A DNA stretch of 64,000 nucleotides from a plasmid, in sequence record NZ_CP019224.1; one strand, given 5' to 3'. The translations under genes and the position numbers were made by a program. This document shows positions 6,783 through 38,984 of this stretch, one piece after another. The notes under the pieces are model-generated. The model worked only from the letters and a program-made list of their open reading frames with translations. It searched no databases and was not told the origin of the DNA. Within the stretch, counting starts at the first letter, position 1, and every line of letters starts with the position of its first letter.

Positions 6783-7501
6783 ACGAAAGCTATTCCGCAG
6801 CAGCGGATTTAGCGGACACCATAACCATGTTGATGACGGAGCCGCGGCCTTTGCCGCGGCAGTTGAAGCGGCTAAAGAAACGTAGCGAGTGGCCGATCGA
6901 TGAAGCGCTGCTAGTTTTCGAAGCGGCGGTGGAGTATGTCGCTATCCGCAATAACTATGACGCCGTGGCCGATTGGAAGAGGCGTCAGGCAAAGCTCAAC
7001 GGTTGGTTAGGGGTTCTTCAACGTGAGCCGGCACCGATGTCCGATGAGCAATTTGCTGCCAGCATAGTCGCGTGCGGGAGAGTGGACCCGACCGAGCTGG
7101 AAGCAGTTCTGGTCGGTACTAGGCACACGGCGGCCTTGTTGGACGACATTGCCGAGGTGATAGCCGAGCACCAGCGCGAGCACGAAGAAACTGAGCGGAT
7201 GAACCGGGCGGTGGCGCGTGGGCGCGAGCGGGTGAGGATGATCATGAAGCGGTGCGTGGAGCGTCGCGCAGAAATCAGCGCGGCTACAGAAGAACGCCTA
7301 CAACAAATTTCGCCGGAAGATGCCGCCTCCCAGAAGTTAGCTATTGAGGCCGCTTATCCGGATCTGATCGTGCTGAGCGAGACAGCGTGTGAACAGATCA
7401 ACGCGCAGACGCGCCGCGTGTTGGACGCGCATCGACGCACGGCAGCGATGCCGATTTGGCAGTTCTGGGAGATGGCCTACAAAGACCTAATCGAGGATTG
7501 A
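6779..7501 (+). CDS. hypothetical protein
   Basis: The ORF track gives 6662..7501, which would overlap the preceding gene by 120 bp. A GTG at 6779 overlapping the upstream stop (GTGA) gives a coupled 240-aa product. The protein is charged and helical. The start is uncertain. Confidence 0.4.
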   Translation: MNESYSAAADLADTITMLMTEPRPLPRQLKRLKKRSEWPIDEALLVFEAAVEYVAIRNNYDAVADWKRRQAKLNGWLGVLQREPAPMSDEQFAASIVACGRVDPTELEAVLVGTRHTAALLDDIAEVIAEHQREHEETERMNRAVARGRERVRMIMKRCVERRAEISAATEERLQQISPEDAASQKLAIEAAYPDLIVLSETACEQINAQTRRVLDAHRRTAAMPIWQFWEMAYKDLIED

Positions 7502-7821: not shown

Positions 7822-9474
7822 TCATGCGGCGTCCCCTTGCGGGGTTGGGGTTTTGGCCTCTCCGCGTCCGGCCCCGCGTGGGCGGGGTCTTACGGATGCT
7901 CCGCCGGCACCGGTTGATCCGGTGTCCGCGCCATGGCCTGTACCAACCGATTCGGTTGGCCCGGGTACCGATGGGGCCGTGGTCCCGACTGGACCACAAC
8001 TGGCGTAATCCGGCCAGTCACGGAGATTCAAAGCAGCATTTCTATCGCGGTCGACCATTTCACCTGTCTGCGGGCAGATGAGGTGCTTGTCGATCCGGCC
8101 CTTACCGACCAGGCGGCATGGGGTGCCGTTGGGGTGGGTGCAGCGGTGGTGGAGCTGGCTTGATGGGAACCAGCGATCCGCCACGATCAGGGTGCTGCCG
8201 TGCCGAGTGGTCTTGTAGGCCAGCATCGGCGCGACCAATCCCATTGCGGCATCAGAAACAGACCGGCGAAACGCCCGCCGGCCCATACTGCGTTTCATCG
8301 CGGCCACATCGAGATCTTCGATCACGACCTGGCCGTAGGTGCCCGCCAACTGCGTGGTGAGTTGGTGGGCTGCTTCCCGCCGCAGATGCACGCACCGACG
8401 ATCCAATCGGGTCAGCTTGGCTTTCGCTGCCCGATGACCGTGCGATCCGGGGATACGGCGGGAAAGTTCACGACCAGCCCTGCGGCGGGCGGCAAGTGTC
8501 GCCTTGAGCGGGGCCGGATTCTTATACTCGACAACGGTTTCGACGCCGGTGGCGGGGTCGATCGTGGCGACGGTGGCCAGCGTGCGCACCCCCAGATCCA
8601 CCCCGGCGCGCACCGTGGGCTGAGTCGGCGTTCTTCCCGCGCTCGGGGTGCGCAGCGCATAGCCGACCGACACGAACAACCGGCCCCACCGCTGGGACAG
8701 GGTCATGTTCAGGATGCGGGCGCGCCCCGATGCGAGATGACGTTGCACGCGGCGGGTGTTCTCCTTGGACCGCAGCGCGCTGATGACCGGGACCGTGATG
8801 CTATGGCGGTCATCCTCTACCCGCATGGTGCCGGTGGTGAACCGGACCCGGCCGGGATCGCGTCGCGCCGTGGCGAACCGCGGGAAACCCACCCGCCGAC
8901 CCTGGCGTCTCCCGTTCTTGCTGGCGCTCCAGTTGCTCAGTGCCTGGGCCAGATCGGCCAACCCTGCCGAGTAACACTCCTTGCTGTTAGTGGCCCACCA
9001 CGGCGCCACCTCGTGCTTAGCGAGATTCCACGCTTTGCGTAGCGCGCCGAGGTCCCAGCCCAACGACTCATGTTCCGGATCAGCCGATTTCGCGTCGAGG
9101 TCGGCCTTCACCCGACCCAGACCCCAGTTGAACGCCTTGCGGCGAGCACCGAAATGCGACCGCACCAACGCCGCCCGCTCGGGCTCCGCTGGCCATTCCA
9201 CCTCGAACTTCGCCGCGGTCACCAGCCAACCAGAGGCCACTTCCGCACCCAGCGAACCGTTGACCGCATAACCGGCGGCGTCCCCGTCGTAGAGCTTGAA
9301 CAAGACAGACACCGATTCCACCACCGCACGGTGCGACTCGAAATCCGCGCCCACATCGACATAACGTGACAATGTTTGGCTGCCATCGGGTTTCGGTTTC
9401 CCCGGCAACTGCACACCACCGGTCAGCCCGGCCACCTTCGCCGCCTGACCACAGGTGCGCATCCCGACGATCAT
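7822..9474 (-). CDS. tnpB: IS607-family TnpB (OrfB, RNA-guided nuclease-type accessory protein)
   Basis: Long minus-strand ORF (track 7822..9561). C-terminal zinc-ribbon signature (CTHPNGTPCRLVGKGRIDKHLICPQTGEMVDRDRNAALNL) and a RuvC-like region typical of IS605/IS607 OrfB/TnpB. The start is placed at the ATG overlapping the tnpA stop (9474). The upstream extension is rejected. Confidence 0.75.
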   Translation of the reverse strand: MIVGMRTCGQAAKVAGLTGGVQLPGKPKPDGSQTLSRYVDVGADFESHRAVVESVSVLFKLYDGDAAGYAVNGSLGAEVASGWLVTAAKFEVEWPAEPERAALVRSHFGARRKAFNWGLGRVKADLDAKSADPEHESLGWDLGALRKAWNLAKHEVAPWWATNSKECYSAGLADLAQALSNWSASKNGRRQGRRVGFPRFATARRDPGRVRFTTGTMRVEDDRHSITVPVISALRSKENTRRVQRHLASGRARILNMTLSQRWGRLFVSVGYALRTPSAGRTPTQPTVRAGVDLGVRTLATVATIDPATGVETVVEYKNPAPLKATLAARRRAGRELSRRIPGSHGHRAAKAKLTRLDRRCVHLRREAAHQLTTQLAGTYGQVVIEDLDVAAMKRSMGRRAFRRSVSDAAMGLVAPMLAYKTTRHGSTLIVADRWFPSSQLHHRCTHPNGTPCRLVGKGRIDKHLICPQTGEMVDRDRNAALNLRDWPDYASCGPVGTTAPSVPGPTESVGTGHGADTGSTGAGGASVRPRPRGAGRGEAKTPTPQGDAA

Positions 9475-10055
9475 CACGCAGCCCCTGGCTCCCGCTTGGT
9501 GGCCGTCACCGCACGCATCGCCCGATTCCGCGCACCACGACGGCCGTAGAGCCGCGCACACATACTGGTCAGGACCTCGATCATGTCGCGCACCAGATCA
9601 TCGGTGGTCTCACCCGGATCAGCGACCACGATCCGGCGGCCCTGCGCCGACAACGCCGCTTCCAGGTGTTCCACCCCGAAACGCGCCAGCCGATCCCGAT
9701 GCTCCACAACGATCACCCTCGCATCGGGGTCCGACAAGATGCGGCGCAGCTTGGGCCGCTTCCCATTCAGCCCGGAACCGACCTCGCACACCACCTGGCC
9801 CACCTCAAGATCACGCTCCGTGGCCCACGCGGTCACCCGCGCCACCTGACGGTCCAGATCCGAGCGCTGATCATGGCTGGACACCCGCGCATACACCACC
9901 ACCGTCGCCGCCGCACCCGATACCGAGGCTGCCGCCTTGACCAGAATCAGCCGCCCAACCCGCTCCGCGGGCACCGGCAACGTCCCCTCCCGAAACCACC
10001 GATAAGCGGTATGCCGGTTCACACCAACCGATTCCGCCCAATCCGCCAGATTCAC
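9474..10055 (-). CDS. tnpA: IS607-family TnpA serine recombinase (MerR-like HTH + resolvase catalytic domain)
   Basis: 193-aa ORF. The N-terminus MNLADWAESVGVNRHTAYRWFREGTLP is a MerR-type HTH. The downstream YARVSSHDQRSDLDRQ is the serine-recombinase active-site region. Overlaps the tnpB start, the usual IS607 arrangement. Confidence 0.8.
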   Translation of the reverse strand: MNLADWAESVGVNRHTAYRWFREGTLPVPAERVGRLILVKAAASVSGAAATVVVYARVSSHDQRSDLDRQVARVTAWATERDLEVGQVVCEVGSGLNGKRPKLRRILSDPDARVIVVEHRDRLARFGVEHLEAALSAQGRRIVVADPGETTDDLVRDMIEVLTSMCARLYGRRGARNRAMRAVTATKREPGAA

Positions 10056-10129: not shown

Positions 10130-11563
10130 CAGGGACTGTCGCAGTAAGGGTGTAAACGGCCTGATCGGCCCCGGTGTGTCGGGGCCGGAAAGGTCGCATG
10201 ATGACCGAAACTGTCGTGGCTGTGGAGCCATCGCAGAATCTCGATGTTGAGGCCGCTGCGGCGGCCATTGAAGTCCCGGATAGCCGTGAGGTCGACGAGC
10301 TCGAGGTCGCCCGGGAGCTGGTACGCCAGGCCCGCGAGGCCGGCGTGGCGCTGACCGGCCCGGGCGGCCTGCTCAAGGCGATGACCAAGACGGTCATCGA
10401 GACCGCCCTGGACGAGGAATTATCCGAGCACCTGGGCTATGACCGCCACGATCCGGCCGGGTACGGCTCGGGCAACTCCCGCAACGGAACCAGGGCCAAG
10501 ACCGTGCTCACCGATGCGTGCGGGCAGATCGAGATCGACGTCCCGCGCGACCGCGCCGGCAGCTTCGAACCCGAGATCGTCAAGAAGCGTCAACGCCGCT
10601 TGACCGATGTCGATGAGGTGGTGTTGTCGCTGTATGCCCGCGGGCTGACCACCGGTGAGATCAGCGCCCATTTCGCCCACATCTACGGCGCGGCAGTCTC
10701 CAAGGACACGATCAGTCGGATCACCGACCGCGTGGTCGAGGAGATGACCGCCTGGCACACCCGCCCGCTGGAACGCGTGTACGCCGCGGTGTTCATCGAC
10801 GCCCTGCACGTCAAGATCCGCGACGGCCAGGTCGGCCCCAGGCCCATCTACGCCGCGATCGGGGTGGACCTGGCCGGGCATCGTGACGTGCTGGGCATGT
10901 GGGCCGGCGAGGGCGATGGCGAGTCGGCCAAATACTGGCTGGCGGTGCTCACCGAGCTGAAGAACCGCGGGGTGGCCGACATCTTCTTCCTGGTCTGCGA
11001 TGGGCTCAAAGGCTTACCGCAATCGGTGGGCGCGGTGTTCCCCGACACTGTGGTCCAGACGTGTGTCATCCATTTGATCCGTGGGACGTTCCGCTATGCC
11101 GGGCGCCAGCACCGCGACGCCATTGCCAAGGCGTTGCGGCCGATCTATACCGCGGTCAACGCTGAGGCTGCAGCGGCAGCGCTGGACGCGTTCGAGGCCG
11201 AGTGGGGTAATCGCTATCCGGCAGCAATTCGATTGTGGCGCAACGCGTGGAGTGAGTTCATTCCGTTCCTGGACTACGACACTGAGATAAGGAAGGTGAT
11301 CTGTTCGACCAATGCTATTGAATCGTTGAACGCCCGCTACCGCCGCGCCGTCCGGGCCCGCGGTCATTTTCCGACCGAGCAGGCAGCGCTGAAGTGCCTA
11401 TACTTGGTCACCCGGTCGCTGGACCCGACCGGGACCGGACAGAAGCGATGGACCATGCGCTGGAAACCAGCCCTGAACGCCTTCGCGATCACCTTCGCCG
11501 ACCGCATGCCCGGCAGCGAAACCACTTAACCGAAGATGCCGCTTACACCGTTAATCTGACGGA
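10130..11563 (+). mobile_element. IS256-family insertion sequence with imperfect ~30-bp terminal inverted repeats and a 9-bp target-site duplication
   Basis: Left end ...CTGTCGCAGTAAGGGTGTAAACGGC. The reverse complement of the right end is ...CCGTCAGATTAACGGTGTAAGCGGC. The 9-bp direct repeat CCCACGGGG flanks both ends (10121-10129 and 11564-11572). Length about 1434 bp. Confidence 0.75.
10174..11529 (+). CDS. IS256-family (mutator-type) transposase
   Basis: 451-aa ORF. Its conserved blocks (GPGGLLKAMTKTVIETALDEELSEHLGY, YARGLTTGEISAHFAHIYG, VFIDALHVKIRDGQ, FLVCDGLKGL) are classic for IS256/IS1081-type transposases. Confidence 0.85.
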   Translation: MCRGRKGRMMTETVVAVEPSQNLDVEAAAAAIEVPDSREVDELEVARELVRQAREAGVALTGPGGLLKAMTKTVIETALDEELSEHLGYDRHDPAGYGSGNSRNGTRAKTVLTDACGQIEIDVPRDRAGSFEPEIVKKRQRRLTDVDEVVLSLYARGLTTGEISAHFAHIYGAAVSKDTISRITDRVVEEMTAWHTRPLERVYAAVFIDALHVKIRDGQVGPRPIYAAIGVDLAGHRDVLGMWAGEGDGESAKYWLAVLTELKNRGVADIFFLVCDGLKGLPQSVGAVFPDTVVQTCVIHLIRGTFRYAGRQHRDAIAKALRPIYTAVNAEAAAAALDAFEAEWGNRYPAAIRLWRNAWSEFIPFLDYDTEIRKVICSTNAIESLNARYRRAVRARGHFPTEQAALKCLYLVTRSLDPTGTGQKRWTMRWKPALNAFAITFADRMPGSETT

Positions 11564-11810: not shown

Positions 11811-12233
11811 TTAGGGCGCTGGCCAGTAGCCGATGACGCCGTTGAATTCGAGGTCGGTTTGGGTGAAGTCGTTGCCGATGGCGATGAGGGGTTCGTGTGC
11901 GAGTTTGGCGGTGGCGTAGGCCATGGTGTCGCCGTAGTTGAGGGCGGCGGGGTGGCGGCCTTTTCCGTAGTGGAGGTAGGCGCGGTGGGCGGCGATCGCG
12001 TGTTCGAGGGTGAAGGGCTGGAAGCCGAGGTTGATTTCGGATCGTAGGCGGTCGAAGACGGTGCGCGCGGTCGCGCCGTGTCGGTTGGTGAGAACGATGA
12101 GGCATTCGGCTGCGTTGGCCGTGGACATGACGGGGCTGGGATCGGCGGCGATGGCGGCCGCGATCTGTTCGGTGTAGGGGTCCTCGCCCTGGATGAGGGC
12201 GACGATCGCGGAAGAGTCGATGATCAGGATCAA
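11811..12233 (-). CDS. vapC: VapC PIN-domain ribonuclease toxin
   Basis: 140-aa [22 protein letters not shown] is the PIN-domain N-terminus with a conserved Asp. The C-terminus [15 protein letters not shown] carries conserved acidic residues. The start overlaps the vapB stop (ATGA). Confidence 0.8.
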
Positions 12234-12493
12234 ACTCCCGTTGCTGTGTCGTATCCGAGGGCTTGTTCGCGTTCGGTTTTGGTGATTGGGGATCGGTCGT
12301 CCAGTAGTGGCCAGATCTCGGTTTTGAGGACGTCGAGCAGTTCTGCGGAGCGGTTTGCGGTGCGGGATTGGGTGACTTCGATCTGGGCTCGCAGGGCGTA
12401 GCGGATGGCGTCGATGCGGCTGGGGAGGTGGAGGCGCGCGGCGAGCTCGTCTGCGAAGCGGATGACCTCTTCGTCTTTCACGTTGAAAGCCAT
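12230..12493 (-). CDS. vapB: VapB antitoxin
   Basis: 87-aa product from an internal ATG ([25 protein letters not shown]...) within the longer 293-aa track ORF. Its size and position, immediately upstream of and overlapping vapC, fit a VapB antitoxin. The long upstream extension is rejected. Confidence 0.65.
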
Positions 12494-12594
12494 GGGTACA
12501 TGGTACCCCGTGGACGGTGTCCGGTACTTCGCGGGTGATCGCTTTGCCGGCGTGGGTGTGGCCCGGCTGGGTAGTGCCGGGTTAATTTTGTGGG

Positions 12595-13569
12595 GTGAGT
12601 GTTGCGGCGTTTGTGGCTGGGGTTGATCGGTTGCTGAGCCGTGCGCATGAGTTGTTTCCGGCCGGGGGTGCGGGCGGGGCACTGCCGAGCTCGGGTGATG
12701 TTGCGGTGCCGGGCTCTCCGGAGGGTGGCAGTGGTTTGCGGGCCGGGGTGGTACGCGCGGCCGGTTCTTATCAGCAGGCTCGCAGTGGGGCGGCGGGCCT
12801 GGATGGGGAGCTGGCGCAAAGCGCCGAGGAAGGCGCGCAGATCGGGGCCCAGGGCCGGGAGGCGTCGGGGTTGATTCGCGATCAGGCCCGTACCAGCGCG
12901 GCCGCGCTGTTGCCGATGGCTCGCACGCCAGCGGGTGCGCACCTGCTGATGGCGACGATGGATCAACATTTGGCGGCGATGCAGGACCAGCTGCAGACCA
13001 CCAAAACCCAGTACCAGGCCATCTCGGCGGGATTGCGCCAAACCGCCGCCGGCTATCACACCTTGACTGACGGCGCGAAGGACTCACCGCCGGCGGCGCC
13101 GCTGGACTCATCGGATAAGTGGAAGCCAGGCGACAAGCATCATGAGCCTTACGGGGCTGGCGTGGGCGGGATGGGTCCGCCGAACTATCCCCATTCGCCG
13201 CCGTGGGTGGACATTTACGACAGGACGAAAGATCCGGATCAGGTTCCGCACTATTTCGTCAGATCTGACGAGATTCCCGGCTACCAGGTCCTTCCGCCGG
13301 GGCGCTATGGTCCCGCGACGGTTTACGACGAGCACGGCAACCCTGATCCTTATGTCCAGTTGGGCCCGAATTCTGGTGTGTGGGTGCCGCAGTCGGCTTT
13401 CCCGGGGGCGAAGGTCTATCCGCCGGGTGGGGGTGAGTTGCCGCCGTATGGGTGGAGTGAGTATGTGCCGGGCTCGGGGATTTTCTTGTGGCACGGGGAT
13501 TTGATGCCGGAGCCGTATAAGCCGTATGGCCCGTCCGGGCCGCCGACGATTCCGCAGGGCGGCCGCTAA
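12595..13569 (+). CDS. modular protein, paralog 1: shared N-terminal helical domain + Pro/Tyr/Gly-rich C-terminal domain of unknown function
   Basis: GTG start ([16 protein letters not shown]...). The N-terminal ~180 aa are homologous to the N-termini of the next two genes. The C-terminal 150 aa are unique ([45 protein letters not shown]...). Confidence 0.55.
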
Positions 13570-13587
13570 ACCGGCCCGAACTGGCGG

Positions 13588-14207
13588 TGCGTGGCTGTGG
13601 CCGGGGGGATTTGCTCGGGTTAATTTTGGTGGGTGAGTGTTGCGGCGTTCGTGGCTGGGGTTGATCGGCTGCTGAGTCGCGGTCATGAGTTGTTCCCGGC
13701 CGGGGGGCCGGGTGGTGGGCAGGTGTTCGCCGCTGGGGGTCGGGTGCCGGTGCCGGAGGCCCCGGATGGCCACAGCGGTTTGACGGGTGGGGCTCGGGCC
13801 GCCGGTGGGGCGTATCAGCAGGCGCAGGCCGGTGCGGATGGTCTTGACGGGGACTCGGGGCAGGCGGTAGCCCAAGGTGGTGAGGTTGGTGCGCAGGGCC
13901 GCGCCGGGTCGGGGTTGATTCGGGATCAGGCCCGCGCGGTGGGTGCTGCGACCGCGGGGATGGGTCGTTCGCCGGCGGGCGCGAAGTTGATCATGGCGGC
14001 CATGGATGATCATTTGGCCGCGATGCAGCGTCAGTTGGATCAGACCACGGCCGAAAACCGGCTGTTGGCGATGCGGATGCGTCAGCTGGCGGCGGGCTAT
14101 CGCGGTCTGGGTGCAGGTGGGATGGGCGGCGGTATGCCCCTGTCCGGGCTGGGCGGCTTGATGTCGGGCGGCGGCGGTGGCGGCGGCCTGAGCGGGTTAA
14201 GCGGCTT
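13588..14207. repeat. ~620-bp direct repeat, copy A (near-identical to 14777-15401)
   Basis: The upstream leader plus the first ~575 bp of paralog 2 are almost base-for-base identical to the corresponding region of paralog 3. Only a few substitutions are visible (for example ggccacagcggtt versus ggcgacagcggtt). Confidence 0.8.
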
Positions 14208-14736
14208 GGGGAGCGTGCCTGGAGGGTGGAGCCGTTTGGTGGGATCGGTCCGCGGGGGCCGGGGGCCGCGGAGCGAGGAAGCGGCGCCGCGCGGCGATGT
14301 GGGGACTGCGCTGGGCGGGTTGACGCAGGATTCGTCTCCGCGTGAAGTGGCTGCAGCGATCATCCATGAGGCTCGCCGGCGCGGCTACTCGCCGCACCAG
14401 ACGATCGCGATCTTGTCTACGGCGATGCAAGAAAGCGGGTTGCGTCCTCGGGCTGTGAGTCCGAATGGGTTGTGGAGAAGCATTTTCCAGCAAGACTCGG
14501 GTTATCCGGGCCGCAATAATCCCAACACGGCGATTTCGGGATTTTTCGATCGGCTGGCCCACCATGGCGGTCCGTCGTCACCGGACATTTGGAAGTCGAT
14601 CTTCTGGTTACAGCAGCGCCCGGGCGATTCGTCGGCTGAGGCGGCAGTGGCGCACGGACGTAGGGGCTATTTGAACGAGATCCAGAGTCAGTTGCCCAGG
14701 GCGACGGCGTTGTATCGCAGCATCGCCGGAGTTTGA
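13633..14736 (+). CDS. modular protein, paralog 2: shared N-terminal domain + SLT-like lytic transglycosylase C-terminal domain
   Basis: GTG start. N-terminal 190 aa nearly identical to paralog 3. A Gly-rich linker (GGGGGGGLSGLSGL). The C-terminal region AIIHEARRRGYSPHQTIAILSTAMQESGLRPRAVSPNGLWRSIFQQ matches the SLT catalytic E-S motif with the downstream AVSP.G block. Confidence 0.6.
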   Translation: MSVAAFVAGVDRLLSRGHELFPAGGPGGGQVFAAGGRVPVPEAPDGHSGLTGGARAAGGAYQQAQAGADGLDGDSGQAVAQGGEVGAQGRAGSGLIRDQARAVGAATAGMGRSPAGAKLIMAAMDDHLAAMQRQLDQTTAENRLLAMRMRQLAAGYRGLGAGGMGGGMPLSGLGGLMSGGGGGGGLSGLSGLGSVPGGWSRLVGSVRGGRGPRSEEAAPRGDVGTALGGLTQDSSPREVAAAIIHEARRRGYSPHQTIAILSTAMQESGLRPRAVSPNGLWRSIFQQDSGYPGRNNPNTAISGFFDRLAHHGGPSSPDIWKSIFWLQQRPGDSSAEAAVAHGRRGYLNEIQSQLPRATALYRSIAGV

Positions 14737-14776
14737 CCACCACCACCACAACGATGTACGAGGATGCTGCGAATTT

Positions 14777-15401
14777 TGCGTGGCTGTGGCCGGGGGGATT
14801 TGCTCGGGTTAATTTTGGTGGGTGAGTGTTGCGGCGTTCGTGGCTGGGGTTGATCGGCTGCTGAGTCGCGGTCATGAGTTGTTCCCGGCCGGGGGGCCGG
14901 GTGGTGGGCAGGTGTTCGCCGCTGGGGGTCGGGTGCCGGTGCCGGAGGCCCCGGATGGCGACAGCGGTTTGACGGGTGGGGCTCGGGCCGCCGGTGGGGC
15001 GTATCAGCAGGCGCAGGCCGGTGCGGATGGTCTTGACGGGGACTCGGGGCAGGCGGTGGCCCAAGGTGGTGAGGTTGGTGCGCAGGGCCGCGCCGGGTCG
15101 GGGTTGATTCGGGATCAGGCCCGCGCGGTGGGTGCTGCGACCGCGGGGATGGGTCGTTCGCCGGCGGGGGCGAAGTTGATTATGGCGGCCATGGATGATC
15201 ATTTGGCCGCGATGCAGCGTCAGTTGGATCAGACCACGGCCGAAAACCGGCTGTTGGCGATGCGGATGCGTCAGCTGGCGGCGGGCTATCGCGGTCTGGG
15301 TGCAGGTGGGATGGGCGGCGGTATGCCCCTGTCCGGGCTGGGCGGCTTGATGTCGGGCGGCGGCGGTGGCGGCGGCCTGAGCGGGTTGAGCGGCTTGGCG
15401 T
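14777..15401. repeat. ~620-bp direct repeat, copy B (near-identical to 13588-14207)
   Basis: See copy A. Identity ends after ...GAGCGGCTTGG, where the C-terminal modules diverge. Confidence 0.8.
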
Positions 15402-15862
15402 CGGGGATACCGGCGTCACTGATGGGCAGCCTGAGTCGCGGCGGCGGTGAGAACGGGGGGCCGGGTGAGCAGTCGGGCGCTTCGCTTCTGGGCGGCGGTG
15501 GCAGTGGGACGGCGCTGCGGGCGGTGCAGTTCGCCGAGACCAAGTTGGGTGATCCGTACGTGTGGGGCGCGACAGGGCCGCGCCAATACGACTGCTCCGG
15601 GTTGGTGATGGACGCCTACCGGCACGCGGGGGTTCAGTTGCCGCGCATGACCTACGACATGATTCACAAAGGTATGACGGTGGATCGCGCTGAGGTGCGG
15701 GCCGGTGATCTGGTGTTTTCCAATTTCTCGAGCAGAGGGCCGGAGCATGTGCAGATGGCGGTGTCCTCGACGAAGGTCATTGAGGCGCCCACCCCGGGGG
15801 GCCACGTCCAGTATTCGGGCTTCCCGCGTGGGCATGTTGTCGTGAAAAGAATTGTCGGATAA
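14822..15862 (+). CDS. modular protein, paralog 3: shared N-terminal domain + NlpC/P60 (C40) peptidoglycan endopeptidase C-terminal domain
   Basis: GTG start. The C-terminus LGDPYVWGATGPRQYDCSGLVMDAYRHAGVQLPRMTYDM...GDLVFSNFS...GPEHVQMAV is a canonical NlpC/P60 domain. It has the catalytic Cys (DCSGL) and downstream His. Ends 17 bp before eccB. Confidence 0.7.
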   Translation: MSVAAFVAGVDRLLSRGHELFPAGGPGGGQVFAAGGRVPVPEAPDGDSGLTGGARAAGGAYQQAQAGADGLDGDSGQAVAQGGEVGAQGRAGSGLIRDQARAVGAATAGMGRSPAGAKLIMAAMDDHLAAMQRQLDQTTAENRLLAMRMRQLAAGYRGLGAGGMGGGMPLSGLGGLMSGGGGGGGLSGLSGLASGIPASLMGSLSRGGGENGGPGEQSGASLLGGGGSGTALRAVQFAETKLGDPYVWGATGPRQYDCSGLVMDAYRHAGVQLPRMTYDMIHKGMTVDRAEVRAGDLVFSNFSSRGPEHVQMAVSSTKVIEAPTPGGHVQYSGFPRGHVVVKRIVG

Positions 15863-15879: not shown

Positions 15880-17421
15880 TTGACGGTGGTTGAGCCGGGA
15901 GTGGATAAGGACGACGAGTCGCGCTGGCGCGGGCGCGGTCTGGGGCTTTCGACGCGGGTACAGGTGTCGGGGCACATGTTTTTCGCCCGTCGCGCGGTGG
16001 CGGCGATGACTCGGCGGCGGGTGCGGATGGAGGCCGAGCCGGGCCGGCGCCAGTCGATGGCGATGTTGGCGGGTGTGACGCTGACCGCTGTGCTGTGTCT
16101 GGGGGCGTTGTTCTGGTCGTTTGTGCGCCCGGCCGGTTCGGCGGGGCAGGCGCGGATTGTGGCCGATCAGGATTCGGGGGCGCTGTATGTGCGGGTGGGC
16201 GAGAAGCTGTATCCGGCGTTGAATTTGTCCTCGGCGCGGTTGATCGCCGGGGAGGCGGCCAGCCCGGTTCGGGTGCGCCGCAGCGAGATTGACGCAGCGC
16301 CGCGCGGGCCGCTGGTCGGTATTGCCGGCGCCCCGCAGGATATGGTGGCGACGTCGCCGGGTCGCTCGTCGTGGTTGGTGTGTGATGAGATCACCAAGGC
16401 GTTCGGGGCGGCTGCGCCTGAGCCGGTGACGGTGACCGTCATCGACGGCCAGCCCGAGCTGGGTCCACGCCGCCACGTGCTGGGCCCTGATGATGCGATG
16501 GTGCGCCGCTATGGGGATGCGGTGTGGTTGATCCGCGATGGGCGGCGCTCGTTGATCAATCAGGGTGCTCGGGCGGTGCTGTTGGCGTTGGGGCTGGGCG
16601 AGGATGCGGTGTTGGGGTCGCGCCCGATGAGCCGGGCCTTATTCGATGCGATCCCGGTGGGCCCGGAGTTGTCGGTGCCGGTGATCCCGAATGCGGGCTC
16701 GCCGGCACGGTTCGCGGGGGCGCCGGGCCCGGTGGGGACGGTGGTATCGACTCCGCAGGTGGGTGGGCAGACCGCGTATTCGGTGGTGCTCACCGATGGC
16801 GTGCAGCCGGTGTCGCCGGTGGTGGCTCAGGTGCTGCAAAATGCCGGGCCGGCCGGTGCGGTGATCCCGGTGGTGGCTGGCCCGGTGTTGGCGAAGTTGC
16901 CGGTGGTGCAAACCCTGGACTTGTCGGCGTTCCCGGCTACCCCGCCGCGGGTGATCGATAGCCAGGTCAACGCCGCGGCGTGCTGGCACTGGGAGAAGGT
17001 GAGCGGTGAGGCGCTGGCTAGCACGTCGGTCATCGCCGGCCCGAGCATCCCGGTGGCCGAGGGCCAAGTGGACAAAGTGGTGGACTTGGTGAAAGCCCCG
17101 GGGCCACAGATGCAGGCCGACCGCGTGTATCTGGGCCCTGAGTACGCCAATTACGTGGTGTCCACCGGTAATTCGCCGTCAGCGGCCACGGTGGAGTCGT
17201 TGTGGTGGATATCCGAATCAGGGGTGCGGTTCGGGGTGCCGCGCCAGGAGGACACGATGAACGCTTTGGGTTTGAAGAAGCATTCCCCGAGCCCGGCGCC
17301 GTGGCTGGCGCTGCGGCTGCTGGCCGCCGGGCCGGCATTGTCGCGCTCTGATGCGCTGGTGCGTCACAACACGCTGCCTGTCGATGCCAACCCGGCCGAA
17401 CTGGAGGTCCCGAAGTCATGA
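15880..17421 (+). CDS. eccB: EccB, type VII secretion (ESX) core membrane component
   Basis: 513-aa ORF. The N-terminal GLSTRVQVSGHMFFARR matches the conserved EccB motif (GL.T..QVSG..F..RR). This is followed by a single TM helix (MLAGVTLTAVLCLGALFW) and a large extracytoplasmic domain ending ...HNTLPVDANP. Confidence 0.85.
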   Translation: MTVVEPGVDKDDESRWRGRGLGLSTRVQVSGHMFFARRAVAAMTRRRVRMEAEPGRRQSMAMLAGVTLTAVLCLGALFWSFVRPAGSAGQARIVADQDSGALYVRVGEKLYPALNLSSARLIAGEAASPVRVRRSEIDAAPRGPLVGIAGAPQDMVATSPGRSSWLVCDEITKAFGAAAPEPVTVTVIDGQPELGPRRHVLGPDDAMVRRYGDAVWLIRDGRRSLINQGARAVLLALGLGEDAVLGSRPMSRALFDAIPVGPELSVPVIPNAGSPARFAGAPGPVGTVVSTPQVGGQTAYSVVLTDGVQPVSPVVAQVLQNAGPAGAVIPVVAGPVLAKLPVVQTLDLSAFPATPPRVIDSQVNAAACWHWEKVSGEALASTSVIAGPSIPVAEGQVDKVVDLVKAPGPQMQADRVYLGPEYANYVVSTGNSPSAATVESLWWISESGVRFGVPRQEDTMNALGLKKHSPSPAPWLALRLLAAGPALSRSDALVRHNTLPVDANPAELEVPKS

Positions 17422-20400
17422 AGATTGGGTTCGCGCGCAAGCAAACTGCGCAGGCGCCGCCGTTTAAGCCTGAAACCCTTGACCTGCCGACTCCACTGAA
17501 AGTGCCGCCGCCACAAAGCAAACCGCTGTGGTCGGTGGCGTTGATCATCGGCCTGCTTGCGCTGTTCGGCGGAATGATGTGGATCAGCTTCGCCAGTGGT
17601 GCGCGCTCGTTTACCGGCGCGGGGTCATTTTTCCCGCTCCTGATGGTGGGCGGGCTGGTTGCGATGCTGTTCGGTGGCCGCGGCGGGTCGCAGGAGATGT
17701 CGCGCTCGAAGCTCGACGCGCTGCGGGCCCGGTTTTGCATGGTCATGGACGAGCTGCGAGGAACCACCTCAGAGTTGGCGGACCGGCTCGATCAGAATCA
17801 CCGCTGGTATCACCCCGCACCGGGCACCCTGGAAGCGGCCGTGGGCAGTATGCGGATGTGGGAGCGCAAGCCCAACGGGTCTGATACATGGTTCGGGGTG
17901 GCCCGGGTCGGGGTGGGCATGACGGATCTGATGGAATCCAATGCCGCCGTGTTCAACGAGCCGCAGGACGCGCCGACCGATATCGAGCTCGAACCGGTGA
18001 CCGGCAAGGTCCTCCAAGAGTTCATGCAATACCAGACGGTGGCCTACGGCACGCCGAAACTGGTGTCGCTGATGGTGGAGCCCGGCTATGAGCTACGCGG
18101 CCCGCGTGAGCGGGTGCTGGGCCTGATGCGCGCGATCCTGTGCGAATTGGTGTTTTTCCACGGCCCCGATCATCTGCGGCTGGTGGTGGTGACTTCTGAT
18201 GCGGCCGAGTGGGATTGGGTGAAGTGGCTACCACACGCCGGTGATCCGAAGCTCATTGACGGTGCGGGCCCGGTGCGCATGGTCTATGGGTCGGTCGCTG
18301 AGTTCCTTGACGCGCAAACTGAGGCAATGTCGCTGTCCACCCGCGGGGACTTCCGCTCGCGCCTGGGCGCGTCGAAGGACCCTATTGAGCCGTTGCCGCA
18401 CACGGTGGTCGTGTGCGACACCGAAGCGGGATGGGAGCGTCTCGGAAGCTCCGAAGGCGTCGCTGGGTTGACATTTTTCGACGTGCGCGGCCTAGGCCGC
18501 GTTCCGGCGTGCCGCGACGCGCGCCGGCGAGTGTTGTACATCGGTGAGAACGCTGTCATCTCGGCGGTGCCGCGCGACCCGATGACATGGGATCCGCAGG
18601 GGAACGATCCCCAGTTTTTCGCCTACGCCGATCAGATGAGCCGCGATGAGGCCGAGACGTTCGCCGAGCGCATGGCGCGCTTCCGGCTCGCCGAGGCCTA
18701 TGAGGCGATCGAAGTTGATTCCGGCAAGCAGGTGATGGCCCGAGACATCCTGTCGTACTACGGGATTGAGGACGCCGCCAATATTGATTTCGACAAGTTG
18801 TGGGGCCCGCGTAGTGACATCAACTCCCTGCAGCGGTTGAAGGTGCCACTGGGTAACCGGATGGACAACAATGAGCTGTTTTTCGTCGACATCAAGGAGG
18901 ACTCGGAAGGGGGCCAGGGCCCGCACGGGGTGATGGCCGGCACGACTGGCTCGGGCAAGACGACGATGCTGCGCGCCTTCATTGAGTCTCTGATGTTGGG
19001 GCACCCGCCGCAAAACCTGCAGTTCATGTTGGCCGACCTCAAGGGTGGCTCGGGTGTTCGGCCCTTTGCCGGGGTGCCTCACGTTTCGCAGATCATCACC
19101 GACCTCGAAGAGGACCAGGGTTTGATGACCCGTTTCATCGACGCGCTGGATGGCGAGATCGCGCGGCGCAAAGCCTTATGCGATGTGCCTGGCGCTGATG
19201 ATGTGGGGGTATACAACAAGATCCGTGCCGATCAGCTCGCAGCGGGGGCTGCTGAGGTGTTGCCGCCGCTGCCGGTACTGGTGGTGGTCATTGACGAGTT
19301 CGCCGAACTGTTTAAGTTGATGGGTCAAGAGATTCAGGACTCGTTGTATCAGATCGCCCGCCAAGGCCGCGCGTATTGGATTCATCTGCTGATGGCCAGC
19401 CAGCAGATCGAAACTCGCGCTGAGAAGCTGCTAGAAAACGTGGGGTACCGGATGGCCCTGCAGACCAATACGACACAGTCAGCCACGGCGATCGGTGTGC
19501 CGAATGCGGTGAACCTCAAGGGTTCTGGGCAGTGCTATTTCTTGCAGGGCAGCCCCGCGAACGGCACGCTGACGAAATTTCAGGGCGAGTTCTTGTGGCG
19601 TGAGTACCGCAAGCCTGGCACGGAGGACCTCGACGACGCGCCGCAAGTGAGCGCGGCGTCAGTGAGTTATTTTGCGCCGCAACTGTTCTCCACGGACTTC
19701 ACACCGTTGCCGCCGCCTGATGAGCTCGACGAGTCGCCAGCTGTGGATGGGGAAGTGGCTGATGTCGACGAGGTGACCGACGCGGGCGATAGCGAGGACG
19801 CCGAGGAGCGCAATGCGTTGATGCGCCCACAGGTGGGGCGCATCATCATCGACCAGCTGCGCCGGATTGACTTTGAGCCTTACCGGTTGTGGAAGCCGCC
19901 GCTGGATGCGCCGTGGAGCATCGAGAAACTGGTGAACACCTATCTGGGGCGGCCCTGGGACAGCGACTATGCGCGCACCCCGAACCTGGTGTTCCCTGTG
20001 GGGCTGGTGGACCGGCCATTCAAGCATGACCAGCATCCGCTGACCATTGACGTGTCGGGCCCGGGCGGCAATGTGGTGATCGTGGGTGCTCAGGGCTCGG
20101 GCAAAACGACTGCGCTGCAAGACCTGATCTGCGCGGCGGCCATGACGCACACCCCTGAGCAGGTGCAGTTTTACTGCCTGGCGTTTTCGTCGGCGGCCCT
20201 CAGTAGTGTGTCGGGGCTACCGCATGTGGGTGGTGTGTCGATGTCGCTTGATAGTGACGGTGTGCGCCGCACCGTGGCGGAGATCGCGGCGTTGCTCGCC
20301 TCGCGCAAGCGCAGCTTCGAGGCGACCGGCGTGATGTCGATGGAGGTGTTTCGCCGCCGCAAGGCTGGGCGTGAGCCCGGGGCTGTGCCTGAGGACGGTT

Positions 20401-21644
20401 ACGGCGATGTGTTCTTGGTGATCGACAACTATGCGGCGATGGTTAGCGAATATGAGGCGCTCGTCGAAGACAAGGTGAACAGGATCATCAAAGAGGGGCC
20501 CACGTTCGGGATTCACGTGGTCGCCGCGGTGACCAAGAACACCGATCTGCAGGTGACGGTGCGGGGTAACTTCGGGTCTCGGGTGGAGCTTCGTCTGGCC
20601 GACTTCAACGAAGCGACGCTGGTGGCTAAGGCGAGACTGGCCACGGCTGTGCCGGCGCGGCCAGGGCGCGGCATGATTGGGCAAAATTACGAACGCACCG
20701 GCGTAGACCCCGTGGGGTTGCACACGTTGATGGCGCGCCCGGCGCTGGAGTCCACCGCCGCGGAGGTGTTCGATTCACGCAGTGTCGCCGAGGCTGTCAG
20801 CCGCCAGGCCGGTAGGTTCAATCCTGCACGTAAGGTGCGCAGGCTGCCAGGGCGGGTTTCGCCGGCCGAGCTGGCGGCGACAGCCGCCACCGATGATCGC
20901 ACCCCCACGTCGATCGTGTGGGCGCTCGACGAGACCGAACGGCCGGTGTTTTTGGCCAGTCAGCATCTGATCATCGCCGGGCAACCCAAGTGTGGGCGCA
21001 CGACGGCGTGTGCAACATTGATGCGCGAGATTCGCAGGGTTTACGCCCCGGGCGCTGACGGCGCTACGGGGCCGGGGCTGGAAGAAACGGCCGACCGCCC
21101 CGCGGCCCAGGTGTGGCTCATTGATCCGCGCCGCCAGCTACTCAACGTGCTGGATAAGTCCTACGTGCAGCGTTTCGCCTCGACGCCGGACTCGGTCAAA
21201 GCGCGCATGGGCGAGCTGGCCGCGGTCCTTGCGCCGCGGCTGCCCAGCGACGATTTATCGGTCGATGACATCGGCCGGCGCCACTGGCAGGGTCCGGAAA
21301 TCTTTTTGATCATCGACGATTCTGAGCGGTTGCCGGTCGGCTTCGACTCACCTCTGGGGGTGATCGAACGGTTCGTGCAGGCCGGCGACGACGTCGGGTT
21401 GCACATCATCTACACCCGCCAGTTCGCGGCGTTCATGGCGGGCCTGGGGGCCGACCCCGTGTTCAGGATGCTCAAGCAGGCCAGGGAGCCGGAGCTGATC
21501 ATGGATTCCGACCCCGATCAAGGATTCGTGAAGGGCAAATGGAAAGGCCATTGGATGCCCAAGGGCCGCGGATTCTTGCTGAATACCGCCGAATCGGGCG
21601 AATCGGGAATTTATGTCCAAGTCGCTGACGCCGGCCTCGGATAG
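17418..21644 (+). CDS. eccC: EccC, fused FtsK/SpoIIIE-family ATPase of ESX system
   Basis: 1408-aa ORF. The ATGA overlaps the eccB stop. N-terminal TM helices. Three P-loop NTPase domains: GTTGSGKTT, GAQGSGKTT and the degenerate GQPKCGRTT. Walker B-like VVIDEFAEL and LVIDNYAAM. Confidence 0.9.
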   Translation: MKIGFARKQTAQAPPFKPETLDLPTPLKVPPPQSKPLWSVALIIGLLALFGGMMWISFASGARSFTGAGSFFPLLMVGGLVAMLFGGRGGSQEMSRSKLDALRARFCMVMDELRGTTSELADRLDQNHRWYHPAPGTLEAAVGSMRMWERKPNGSDTWFGVARVGVGMTDLMESNAAVFNEPQDAPTDIELEPVTGKVLQEFMQYQTVAYGTPKLVSLMVEPGYELRGPRERVLGLMRAILCELVFFHGPDHLRLVVVTSDAAEWDWVKWLPHAGDPKLIDGAGPVRMVYGSVAEFLDAQTEAMSLSTRGDFRSRLGASKDPIEPLPHTVVVCDTEAGWERLGSSEGVAGLTFFDVRGLGRVPACRDARRRVLYIGENAVISAVPRDPMTWDPQGNDPQFFAYADQMSRDEAETFAERMARFRLAEAYEAIEVDSGKQVMARDILSYYGIEDAANIDFDKLWGPRSDINSLQRLKVPLGNRMDNNELFFVDIKEDSEGGQGPHGVMAGTTGSGKTTMLRAFIESLMLGHPPQNLQFMLADLKGGSGVRPFAGVPHVSQIITDLEEDQGLMTRFIDALDGEIARRKALCDVPGADDVGVYNKIRADQLAAGAAEVLPPLPVLVVVIDEFAELFKLMGQEIQDSLYQIARQGRAYWIHLLMASQQIETRAEKLLENVGYRMALQTNTTQSATAIGVPNAVNLKGSGQCYFLQGSPANGTLTKFQGEFLWREYRKPGTEDLDDAPQVSAASVSYFAPQLFSTDFTPLPPPDELDESPAVDGEVADVDEVTDAGDSEDAEERNALMRPQVGRIIIDQLRRIDFEPYRLWKPPLDAPWSIEKLVNTYLGRPWDSDYARTPNLVFPVGLVDRPFKHDQHPLTIDVSGPGGNVVIVGAQGSGKTTALQDLICAAAMTHTPEQVQFYCLAFSSAALSSVSGLPHVGGVSMSLDSDGVRRTVAEIAALLASRKRSFEATGVMSMEVFRRRKAGREPGAVPEDGYGDVFLVIDNYAAMVSEYEALVEDKVNRIIKEGPTFGIHVVAAVTKNTDLQVTVRGNFGSRVELRLADFNEATLVAKARLATAVPARPGRGMIGQNYERTGVDPVGLHTLMARPALESTAAEVFDSRSVAEAVSRQAGRFNPARKVRRLPGRVSPAELAATAATDDRTPTSIVWALDETERPVFLASQHLIIAGQPKCGRTTACATLMREIRRVYAPGADGATGPGLEETADRPAAQVWLIDPRRQLLNVLDKSYVQRFASTPDSVKARMGELAAVLAPRLPSDDLSVDDIGRRHWQGPEIFLIIDDSERLPVGFDSPLGVIERFVQAGDDVGLHIIYTRQFAAFMAGLGADPVFRMLKQAREPELIMDSDPDQGFVKGKWKGHWMPKGRGFLLNTAESGESGIYVQVADAGLG

Positions 21645-33916: not shown

Positions 33917-35986
33917 TCAATGTGTGGGACGGCCCTTGACAGGGGTGCTGTCCTCGTCGACGTCGACTCTGTCGGGCTGTGGGCGCGTACTGGGGCGCTG
34001 CGGCTGGTGTGGCGGAGAGGCTGGGTTGGCGCGCTGGTGCGTGGGGCGCTCGGGGCTGCCGCCCCGGCCGGGGGCTGGGGTTGGCGCTGGTTGGGCGCCG
34101 GCAGGCGCGGCGGGACCACCTTGGGGCGAAGAGTTGGGGGCGCCGGCCGGGGGGTTGGGTTGCTGTGCGCCAGTAGAGCTGTGGTCGCGGTGGCGGCGCT
34201 GAGCGACGTGACCGGCGACGGCGGCCGCAGCGACGGCTTCGGGTGCCACGACGGCGGTGGCGGCCTCACCGGCCATCATGGCACCATCGGCGGCGGCCGC
34301 AGTCCCGCCGGCGGTGGAGGAGGCCGCCACGTCAGCGGCGGGGGCCTGTGGTGCTGGGGTTTGTTGAGAGGCGCGCCCGGGTGAGGGTGGGCGTCCGCCG
34401 GGGGGGCGGCCGTTGACTGGGGGGCCGGTGAGGGGCTGGTCGGGCTCGTCGGGGGTATCGGAGGAGTCGTCGTCGGGTTTTTTGGCCCATGGTGCGCGCG
34501 AGTTGAGGTCTTTGGCTCGGTCGTAGGCGTCTTGTCCGCGTTGGTATCCTTCGCGGCCGCGGTGGACGAGTTCACTGATGGTGTGGGTGAAATCTTGGCG
34601 GGTGTGATCGCCGAGTTCGCGTTTGAGCCACCAGAACACGCCGATGGCGACGGCGGAGATGATGGCGATCATGAATAGCCGCGCGAGTGGGTGGGTCATG
34701 CCGACCTGGTCGGCGTAGCCGCCGCGGGCGCCCATTTTGAGCACGATCATGGCCGCGATGGAGATGTAGGTGGTGTAGGCGAATACCAGGGCGGCGTGTT
34801 TGAAGAACATGGTGATGCGCCGCGCGGCGCGCCGGCGCGGGTGGCCGTGGATCATGGCGGGTGCGGCGGCCACGATGGACATCAGGGCGTTGACGAAGGC
34901 CGCGCAGCATACCATGACGTAGCTGTAGGTGACGTAGCAGACGAAGAACGCGAAGACTGCGCCCAGGAGGCCGTAGCAGGCGCCCAGGGCGAGGTTGGCG
35001 CCGCTGAGGTGTTGGGCGAAGGACAGGGCTTGGGGTGCGCCGCAGGAGGCCATGGCGTGGGCGGGTGCTGCGAGGTCGCCGGCGTTGGGTGGGGTGAGCA
35101 TGGCGGCGGTGTAGGCGCCACCGCAGGTGCCGATGTTATCGACGGTGGTGCCGAAGTTCATCAGCTGTAACGGCATTCGCAAGGTGGTGTCGGCGATGAG
35201 GCCGGTGAGGTGTTGGAGCTGGGCCTGGCCGCCGCCGCTAGTGATGGTGCCGTTGGCGAAGGCTGCTTGGGAGATGCTGAAGCCGAGGTTGCGTCCTTGG
35301 GTCAGTAGCCCGTTTTCGCTGTAGAGGTCGGACAGCGGGTCGCGGGTGAGCACGATGCCCAGGATGCCAACGGCGATGGTGGACACCATGATTCCGGCGC
35401 CGAAGCCTTTGCGACCATGCCACAGGATGTGGAAGGCGCCGACTGAGACACCGAGCAGTAGGCAGATGGGGAAGACCCACAGGTCGGCAAGGATCACCCG
35501 GATTGTCTCGAAGACCGGCCGAAACCAGGTGGCCAGCCACACCAGCCACGTGTTGGACATGGCGAACCGCAGCAGCCACAGCGACATGGCGATCATGAAG
35601 ATGTAGATGCCGGCTTGGGCTTGCAGCAGTTCGATCACGCCTTCATGGGTCATGCCGGTGGTGACGGCGTTGGCCAGCCAGCGGGCCCAGCTCGACGGGT
35701 CCCAGCTGAGGCCAGGTCCTGCTTTGGTGATGGCTTCGGTGGTGCTGACCACGGACAGGTAGTAGTTGCCCACGGGGACGCCGTGGCTGTCGGTGACCCC
35801 GGTCCAGTTCAGTGCACCGGCCAGGGTGGAGGCGGCCGCGGGCGGGGCGGCTCCGATCGCGGCGGCGGCCAGGGTGTGGGTGATGAACCAGAAGGTGGTG
35901 ACGCGCCGCAGGCGTGGGCGGGTGGCCATCTGGTAGCCGAGGTATTCGGCGGCGCGCTGGCCGAATGTTGTTGGCGGGGTGGTCAT
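33917..35986 (-). CDS. large polytopic membrane protein, candidate VirB6/TrbL-like mating-channel component
   Basis: 689 aa. At least 8 hydrophobic helices across the first 450 aa. A long Pro/Ala/Gln-rich hydrophilic C-terminal tail. The ATGA start overlaps the stop of the downstream VirB4-like fragment. The position within the conjugation gene block supports the call. Confidence 0.5.
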   Translation of the reverse strand: MTTPPTTFGQRAAEYLGYQMATRPRLRRVTTFWFITHTLAAAAIGAAPPAAASTLAGALNWTGVTDSHGVPVGNYYLSVVSTTEAITKAGPGLSWDPSSWARWLANAVTTGMTHEGVIELLQAQAGIYIFMIAMSLWLLRFAMSNTWLVWLATWFRPVFETIRVILADLWVFPICLLLGVSVGAFHILWHGRKGFGAGIMVSTIAVGILGIVLTRDPLSDLYSENGLLTQGRNLGFSISQAAFANGTITSGGGQAQLQHLTGLIADTTLRMPLQLMNFGTTVDNIGTCGGAYTAAMLTPPNAGDLAAPAHAMASCGAPQALSFAQHLSGANLALGACYGLLGAVFAFFVCYVTYSYVMVCCAAFVNALMSIVAAAPAMIHGHPRRRAARRITMFFKHAALVFAYTTYISIAAMIVLKMGARGGYADQVGMTHPLARLFMIAIISAVAIGVFWWLKRELGDHTRQDFTHTISELVHRGREGYQRGQDAYDRAKDLNSRAPWAKKPDDDSSDTPDEPDQPLTGPPVNGRPPGGRPPSPGRASQQTPAPQAPAADVAASSTAGGTAAAADGAMMAGEAATAVVAPEAVAAAAVAGHVAQRRHRDHSSTGAQQPNPPAGAPNSSPQGGPAAPAGAQPAPTPAPGRGGSPERPTHQRANPASPPHQPQRPSTRPQPDRVDVDEDSTPVKGRPTH

Positions 35987-38913: not shown

Positions 38914-38984
38914 GACCAGCCTCCAAACGTGTCCGACACGCCCCCGGATGGCTGGGTATTTCCGATCGGGTTTGGCTCATTAAG

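Follow-up and report, generated by a model that had tools for sequence, protein, structure and literature searches.

The closest described relatives of the locus studied here are found on pRAW of Mycobacterium marinum and similar plasmids, the only known conjugation systems that need both type VII secretion system (T7SS) and type IV secretion system (T4SS)-like genes (Ummels et al. 2014, PMC4173767). In that work, the genes at the start of the pRAW ESX-P1 locus were proposed to replace the missing VirB1 and to bridge the two secretion systems, and an adhesion role was considered for ESX-P1 substrates. An NLP/p60 gene was reported in most ESX-P systems and in an ESX-2 synteny block, with CwlT cited as a precedent (Dumas et al. 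2016, PMC4779608). Beyond these two papers, our literature search revealed nothing on the function of DUF4226, on the shared domain described below, or on these genes. Here we analysed 64,000 nucleotides (nt) of plasmid sequence record NZ_CP019224.1, hereafter the window, in which three consecutive genes (12595–15862), referred to as the trio, precede eccB of a plasmid ESX-P1 locus. We know of no dedicated ESX-associated wall hydrolase that has been characterised. The genes in question are as follows.

12595–13569, forward strand: gene 1, encoding 324 amino acids (aa), GTG start.
13633–14736, forward strand: gene 2, encoding 367 aa, GTG start.
14822–15862, forward strand: gene 3, encoding 346 aa, GTG start.
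15880–17421, forward strand: eccB of the plasmid ESX-P1 locus (PF05108, E-value 2e-143; TIGR03919).
17418–21644, forward strand: eccC, the T7SS ATPase gene; without its pRAW orthologue, conjugation fails.

The replicon is a pRAW-like conjugative Mycobacterium plasmid: the window is 95–97% identical to the Mycobacterium plasmids p20KCMC460_01 and pMyong1-type, and about 77–79% identical to pRAW. It contains a complete ESX-P locus (PE/PPE, EspG, EccB, EccC, EccD, MycP, EccE, and EccA), a ParA-like gene, and transfer genes coding for a VirB4-like AAA_10 ATPase, a VirD4/TraG-type coupling protein, and a TrwC relaxase of 1963 aa. An earlier note on this DNA, made from the sequence alone, had recognised a conjugation system on the replicon and had placed the trio 17 nt upstream of eccB in the orientation of the ESX operon. 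The coordinates bear this out, since the stop codon of gene 3 and the start of eccB are separated by 17 nt on the same strand, and eccC comes next. On a 95%-identical plasmid, RefSeq annotates the three coding sequences as hypothetical, hypothetical, and C40 peptidase.

That the three genes share an N-terminal domain (the N-domain), as had also been noticed, is real and statistically secure. The proteins of genes 2 and 3 differ by one residue over aa 1 to ~192, and that of gene 1 is about 59% identical over 158 aa. The conserved part comprises about 160 aa instead of the 180–190 aa first assigned, and occurs in two variants: variant A in gene 1 (aa 1–158; 12595–13068) and variant B in gene 2 (aa 1–161; 13633–14115) and gene 3 (aa 1–161; 14822–15304). 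The Gly-rich linker, thought to be present in all three proteins, follows the N-domain in genes 2 and 3, but not in gene 1, where a short linker leads into a Pro/Tyr-rich (PY) module. Neither a transmembrane segment nor a twin-arginine motif was found in any of the three products, in agreement with the lack of a Sec/Tat-like signal reported before.

In pRAW, mmarE11p_00580 and mmarE11p_00590 are orthologues of genes 1 and 3, with about 76% DNA identity, and occupy the same place before eccB; pRAW differs in having no lysozyme-like middle gene. Both pRAW genes were published as 'NLP/P60', but the NlpC/P60 domain is found only in the second. The first (6049–7023 of fetched locus L003; fetched loci are given L numbers below) corresponds to gene 1: it carries the PY module and lacks an NlpC/P60 domain. 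The part it has in common with the second is the N-domain, from which its published label presumably came. The common domain, its DUF4226 identity, and module swapping are not described in the pRAW paper. The trio architecture, which the earlier note did not recognise as a described family, is therefore not entirely new: the genes and the idea of a VirB1 substitute were published in 2014 (PMC4173767), the NLP/p60 gene in 2016 (PMC4779608), and the N-domain is a divergent relative of DUF4226. What is added here is the domain logic, namely a divergent DUF4226 head that defines a small polymorphic family restricted to ESX-P1, the swapping of cargo within gene slots and across heads, and concerted evolution of the heads.

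Comparable hydrolases are CwlT of ICEBs1 from Bacillus subtilis, PrgK, TcpG, and VirB1, whose genes likewise lie next to those of the transfer machine on a conjugative element. In these systems, a muramidase or lytic transglycosylase is combined with an NlpC/P60- or CHAP-type peptidase. The trio resembles such conjugation-associated wall hydrolases in being encoded together with transfer genes and in bearing glycan- and peptide-cleaving domains. It differs in that the activities reside on separate genes, the heads are helical rather than a signal peptide or anchor, and the machine includes a type VII system.

Our preferred interpretation, held with moderate confidence, is that the trio is a wall-remodelling accessory set of the ESX-P1 secretion/conjugation apparatus. 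The earlier note had put forward this idea, already proposed in 2014, beside that of antibacterial effectors, and the comparative data fit it better than the toxin reading. From the data described below we infer export through ESX-P1, the enzymatic specificity of the modules, and a role in conjugation. The DUF4226-type head would assume the role of a signal peptide by directing the protein to the ESX-P1 machine or docking it there, and the C-terminal module would thereby reach the periplasm and the peptidoglycan. There, the lysozyme-like module of gene 2 (Glu267) would cut glycan strands and the NlpC/P60 module of gene 3 (Cys258-His309-Glu321) would cleave stem peptides. Jointly, the two would create a local opening in which a combined T7SS/T4SS-like mating channel could be assembled, much as CwlT unites both activities on one polypeptide, and gene 1 would probably supply a co-substrate, a partner, or a wall-binding component. 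The proposal is suggested, first, by the absence of Sec/Tat signals and transmembrane segments from proteins of which two, those of genes 2 and 3, bear enzyme modules that work on the outer side of the membrane. It is also consistent with the situation in pRAW, where eccC-P1 and the virB4-like gene are both needed, VirB1 is absent, and its replacement by these genes was proposed by the authors (PMC4173767).

In gene 2, the N-domain is followed by a disordered Gly-rich linker (aa 162–235) and a lysozyme-like domain (aa 236–365; 14338–14727), with a putative catalytic Glu267 in the motif MQESG (14425–14439). A lysozyme-like fold whose first helices bear a conserved Glu places the module in the lysozyme-like superfamily. 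The module, designated SLT-like in the earlier note, is not a canonical SLT: PF01464 (SLT/GH23) did not match gene 2, and Phage_lysozyme2 scored 15.3 bits, below the cutoff of 28.2. NCBIfam gave no match for genes 1 and 2 or for their DUF4226- or EspC-type relatives. The module of gene 3 (aa 243–332; 15548–15817) is the canonical NlpC/P60 domain that had been predicted, matching PF00877 with 71.4 bits (cutoff 23; E-value 7e-20), and NCBIfam matches in the catalytic domain were to RipC, RipA, and RipB, with RipC being the closest. Cys258, His309, and Glu321 are conserved in orthologues of the NlpC/P60 type. In an alignment, the catalytic residues of genes 2 and 3 are strictly conserved; their absence would, according to the earlier note, have counted against its proposal.

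The same note had proposed to look on related plasmids for the N-domain joined to other C-terminal modules, and such combinations were found, with SLT and with a module type described below. Slot 2 is occupied by a Phage_lysozyme2-like module in this plasmid and in L004–L006, and by SLT in L027 (PF01464) and L002 (RefSeq annotation); in L007 and L025, the module in this slot shares no more than 32–36% identity with that of this plasmid. Judged by these family assignments, slot 2 keeps a glycan-cutting fold throughout while the folds change. Slot 3 holds NlpC/P60 in most plasmids. However, in L024 (3023–4111), L025 (14569–15651), and L027 (11812–12885) the gene adjoining eccB carries instead an unrelated module of about 125 aa with the motifs WHPxGxAIDV and NHxDHVHIA. 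It has no Pfam match and is homologous to PDB entries 9flh/9fln (E-value 1.5e-14), an uncharacterised "LysM domain-containing protein" for which a His-to-Ala variant entry exists; this 9flh-type module is probably an undescribed family of wall hydrolases. If it is a peptidase, the pairing of a glycan cutter with a peptide cutter would be retained across the fold swaps. The apparent preservation of slot function under exchange of folds, along with the conserved catalytic residues, argues for wall remodelling.

The N-domain was traced by a profile search of 1.84 billion cluster representatives (E-values up to 1e-3), complemented by plasmid and genome loci. The family survey rests on these two sources because matches from a protein database search for homologues were mostly truncated or frameshifted metagenome fragments. 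The search yielded only 195 proteins, in nearly all of which the domain is N-terminal, either as stand-alone proteins of about 160 aa or in proteins of 260–426 aa with C-terminal extensions. The Pfam model of DUF4226 (PF10774) did not match the window proteins even at E-values up to 1. However, the stand-alone relative P0125 scored 30.2 bits (cutoff 23.5), four of 74 family members matched the model, and hhalign of the N-domain profile against DUF4226-annotated plasmid proteins and stand-alone relatives gave a probability of 99.8% (E-value 1e-27, 154 columns), although this comparison is partly circular, as the DUF4226 set includes members retrieved with the N-domain profile. On these grounds, we assign the N-domain, as far as profile comparison can tell, to a divergent, ESX-P1-specific form of DUF4226 with an added N-terminal helix. 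Common to both are a helical hairpin, an S-P-A-G turn, and a terminal G-Y, and the same PY cargo is carried by DUF4226 proteins; the window proteins differ by the extra conserved N-terminal helix and represent a subfamily restricted to ESX-P1. Proteins encoded near ESX-2 on the chromosomes of pathogenic mycobacteria contain DUF4226 as well.

An AlphaFold2 (AF2) model of the gene 2 product had a mean predicted local distance difference test score of 81, exceeding 90 in the N-domain. It predicts a short helix (aa 3–19), a long hairpin (aa 49–106 and 114–161), a disordered Gly-rich linker (aa 170–221), and a compact helical C-terminal domain. Two features of the N-domain are conserved: the turn reads P-x-x-x-S-P-A-G, and helix 2 ends in a Tyr in 69 of 73 sequences. 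Searches of PDB sequences with profiles of the N-domain and of the C-terminal modules of genes 2 and 1 retrieved only designed coiled coils and Fab chains, at E-values above 0.01. An N-terminal helix-turn-helix hairpin without a Sec/Tat signal, according to the AF2 model and a motif scan, and genetic linkage to an ESX locus are features that the trio shares with T7SS substrates. In particular, the modelled succession of hairpin, disordered Gly linker, and enzyme corresponds to a T7SS cargo layout and is in keeping with the wall-remodelling proposal.

The distribution of the N-domain follows one clade of ESX-P systems. In 14 fetched plasmid or contig loci, eccB is immediately preceded by one to three N-domain genes that run in its direction, and the upstream order, where visible, is a protein of about 214 aa, a protein of about 770 aa, an optional VapBC pair, the N-domain genes, eccB, and eccC. 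A tblastn search detected the N-domain in 18 of the 72,556 plasmids in PLSDB, the same 18, without exception, in which EccB shares at least 59% identity with that of this plasmid. It was absent from the other 68 EccB-bearing plasmids, which belong to other ESX-P clades, and two inspected plasmids of those clades had no N-domain genes before eccB. Co-occurrence of homologues with ESX, pointed to earlier as a check, is thus complete in this collection. The position before eccB in 14 loci and the exact EccB match in 18 plasmids further support the assignment of the trio to the ESX-P1 apparatus. An origin as a phage lysin cassette was rejected, as none of the phage records contained the N-domain. 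On the chromosome of M. brumae (L035, 4156–11071), helix-turn-helix, WhiB, and small genes, an EspK_C-like gene, and an N-domain–lysozyme gene are flanked by transposases and not followed by ecc genes; the block resembles the decayed remains of an ESX-P1-type plasmid.

The C-terminal part of gene 1 is the PY module (aa ~176–324; 13120–13566), which is beta-rich and P/Y-rich. It has a weak internal repeat, and gene 1 shows no catalytic signature. No relatives of this module were found in Pfam, NCBIfam, PDB sequences, or PDB folds, which agrees with the earlier description of a Pro/Tyr/Gly-rich module of unknown function. The module was also found behind DUF4226 domains and behind EspC-like PF10824 domains, named "type VII secretion target" in the source, which contain YxxxD (e.g., ATYTDED). 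Because the same module stands behind the N-domain, DUF4226, and EspC-like heads, the three head types can be regarded as interchangeable carriers of one cargo, and its fusion to T7SS-type heads of the EspC-like kind also speaks for wall remodelling by exported proteins. EspC-like heads with YxxxD and variable tails were seen in L040 (1–126 and 10001–10828) and L042 (10001–10834). The tails of such plasmid or island proteins include the PY module and, once, a calpain-type Peptidase_C2, which suggests that EspC-like-headed proteins constitute a second polymorphic family sharing cargo with the DUF4226-headed one.

One could also imagine that the trio proteins are structural or adhesive parts of the mating junction, with hairpins forming a filament or tip, C-terminal modules (especially PY) binding polymers of the partner, and catalysis being secondary. 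The adhesion role considered by Ummels et al. (PMC4173767) would fit this model, and so would the presence of gene 1, despite its want of a catalytic signature, in most loci that show the region 5' of eccB, the weak repeat of the PY module, as in some binding modules, and the identity of the gene 2 and gene 3 heads, as if both had to fit one assembly partner. Yet the strict conservation of the catalytic residues in genes 2 and 3 is at odds with secondary catalysis, the M. gordonae locus L024 has a hydrolase gene and no PY gene, and nothing in the present data supports oligomerisation, so that we consider such a role very unlikely.

The likeness of the gene 2 and gene 3 heads extends to DNA outside the coding sequence, as is seen from the following elements.

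12559–12594, forward strand: 5' element of gene 1, made up of a hairpin and then GGGTTAATTTTGTGGG, immediately adjoining the GTG.
13588–13632, forward strand: 5' element of gene 2, the same conserved element.
14777–14821, forward strand: 5' element of gene 3, the same conserved element.
13588–14209, forward strand: direct repeat copy 1, running from the gene 2 5' element through the N-domain and including the greater part of the Gly-rich linker.
14777–15398, forward strand: direct repeat copy 2, covering the gene 3 5' element, the N-domain, and the linker.

The two repeat copies are 622 bp long, have five mismatches and sharp edges, and reach from 45 nt before the start codon to inside the Gly-rich linker. 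Within each of five plasmids (this one, L002, L004, L007, and L025), the N-domains of genes 2 and 3 are 99–100% identical, while between plasmids they share only 65–83% identity; the gene 1 N-domain stays 53–70% identical to those of genes 2 and 3. The heads of genes 2 and 3 therefore undergo concerted evolution, which had not been described. The element of about 45 nt directly 5' of all three GTG starts comprises a GC-rich hairpin and, after it, GGGTTAATTTTG(G)TGGG. A TAATTT stands 6 nt ahead of each GTG, the distance at which the −10 box of a leaderless mRNA in mycobacteria is expected, and on the basis of this spacing alone it could be such a box. The hairpin and T-run also score as terminator-like, and a scan for the sigma-70 consensus found no promoter in the region.

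Upstream of gene 1, the window contains the following genes.

4458–6782, forward strand: EspK-like protein, 774 aa, named from synteny and from homologues with PF27215 EspK_C.
11811–12233, reverse strand: VapC, forming a toxin-antitoxin pair with VapB.
12229–12516, reverse strand: VapB; together with VapC it separates the upstream block from gene 1.

In the EspK-like protein, an N-terminal region containing WxG (SWVGESADAARAAH) is followed by a long stretch rich in Pro, Ala, and Gly and by a C-terminal domain of about 290 aa. The gene of this protein lies 5' of the N-domain genes in 16 fetched loci, PF27215 EspK_C is present in its homologues from M. brumae and M. xenopi, and a homologue on one plasmid is annotated as a WXG100 family T7SS target; the window protein itself had no match in local Pfam, NCBIfam, or PDB searches. 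It may act as an adaptor for the hairpin-headed proteins. Insertion sequences break the conserved backbone at 7822–9561 (reverse strand), 10174–11529 (forward strand), and 37487–39079 (reverse strand). A transposase-like open reading frame (ORF), of IS256 type by eye only, and an adjoining large ORF lie between the EspK-like block and VapBC, and an rve-integrase insertion sequence adjoins the VirB4-like gene (35983–37275).

A broader, more tentative proposal, which we would not rate above a possibility, is that the DUF4226-type hairpin represents an unrecognised class of ESX export domain devoid of WxG and YxxxD/E, heading a polymorphic substrate family with interchangeable cargo. The modules found behind DUF4226-type heads include two glycan-cutting folds, NlpC/P60, the 9flh-type module, an alpha/beta hydrolase, glycine-zipper tails, and the PY module. 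The variant A head of gene 1 might then pair with the variant B heads of genes 2 and 3, perhaps with the EspK-like protein taking part, and the variant B heads might be held identical by gene conversion. In that case, the trio would supply the first known example of wall hydrolases leaving the cell through a mycobacterial T7SS.

Several observations weigh against wall remodelling by ESX-P1-exported proteins. The N-domain misses every sequence hallmark of known T7SS substrates: its turn is P-x-x-x-S-P-A-G and contains neither WxG nor LxG, an Asp or Glu at position +4 after the conserved Tyr, as in YxxxD/E, was seen in just two of 69 sequences, and hhalign detected no profile similarity to EspC-like domains. 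No sequence or fold similarity of the N-domain to known T7SS substrates was found, and its structural neighbours are generic coiled-coil and BAR-type bundles, none of them specific. The LXG/WXG-type analogy drawn in the earlier note thus finds no support at the level of sequence or fold. A cryptic EspC/WXG relative was considered and rejected on the negative hhalign result. Co-distribution cannot separate ESX-P1 from the T4SS-like machine, because the ESX-P1 plasmids with the N-domain are pRAW-like and those checked (this window and pRAW) carry genes for both. The pRAW mutants concern only eccC-P1 (transposon insertion, complemented) and the virB4-like gene, both essential for transfer (PMC4173767). 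The peptidase nature of the 9flh-type module is deduced from its H..D / HxH pattern and the His-to-Ala variant entry and is accordingly provisional. Finally, the distant members P0052 and P0046 (L045, 8001–9136; L043, 8001–9473) have glycine-zipper-like C-termini and are found in chromosomal-looking contexts away from ESX genes.

The first of these points would also be explained if the N-domain were a coiled-coil regulatory or docking domain that ties a hydrolase to a membrane machine and holds it auto-inhibited, in the style of RipC/PcsB/EnvC with FtsEX, and export proceeded through the T4SS-like system or an unrecognised signal. RipC and RipA of mycobacteria, PcsB, and EnvC have the same layout, a coiled-coil hairpin followed by a peptidoglycan hydrolase domain. 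The long hairpin, flexible linker, and NlpC/P60 domain of gene 3, whose catalytic domain is closest to RipC, RipA, and RipB, the generic coiled-coil and BAR-type neighbours, the missing canonical T7SS motifs, and the T4SS-like genes on the plasmids checked are all compatible with such a function. However, the RipC N-domain is not similar in sequence, as the NCBIfam RipC match covers the catalytic part only, and RipC/RipA, PcsB, and EnvC have signal peptides, are exported by Sec/Tat, and are controlled by FtsEX during division, whereas the trio proteins have no signal peptide. The occurrence of PY cargo on EspC-like T7SS-type heads and the exact tracking of one EccB clade by the N-domain also disagree with this explanation, and docking and targeting can both hold. 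We therefore regard a purely regulatory domain as unlikely.

The polymorphism of the family and the properties of its distant members raise the question of interbacterial or anti-recipient effectors, the other idea of the earlier note, in which the N-domain would direct delivery and the modules would damage the peptidoglycan of a competitor or recipient. Among the 195 representatives at least 12 different C-terminal modules occur; besides those of the trio and its slot variants, they include an alpha/beta-hydrolase (PF06259), further lysozyme-like modules, Cys-rich modules, an unassigned module of about 240 aa, and glycine-zipper-like hydrophobic tails. In P0052, the next ORF, of 88 aa, overlaps the stop codon by 4 nt in the manner of a toxin–immunity pair, and a small ORF also follows the gene of the other zipper-tailed member. 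Peptidoglycan hydrolases are common antibacterial cargo, and WXG-headed polymorphic toxins (WXG-PT) with immunity genes, exported by ESX, are known from M. abscessus prophages (Dedrick 2021, PMC8092301). The LXG toxins of Firmicutes and WXG-PT resemble the trio in having a helical head, a linker, and a variable C-terminal module, in lacking a Sec signal, and in being linked to a T7SS. The trio differs in having no WxG/LxG, no detectable homology, no adjoining immunity gene or small Esx-like partner gene, and a fixed pair of hydrolases as cargo rather than diversifying toxins. No ORFs were found in the gaps of 63, 85, and 17 nt after genes 1, 2, and 3, leaving no immunity-sized gene beside them. 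Moreover, the trio occupies a fixed position at the head of the conjugation operon, its glycan and peptide pairing survives fold swaps, unlike free toxin diversification, and the N-domain is not found in phage records. An effector function of the trio is therefore improbable and the weaker reading for these genes; that of an interchangeable effector cassette may apply to distant family members with zipper tails and overlapping ORFs.

If the trio proteins are indeed ESX-P1 substrates that cut the cell wall, this would explain how the channel is installed in pRAW-type plasmids lacking VirB1 and would define a new targeting domain. The system is tractable, given the high-frequency transfer of pRAW in M. 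marinum and the existence of eccC mutants.

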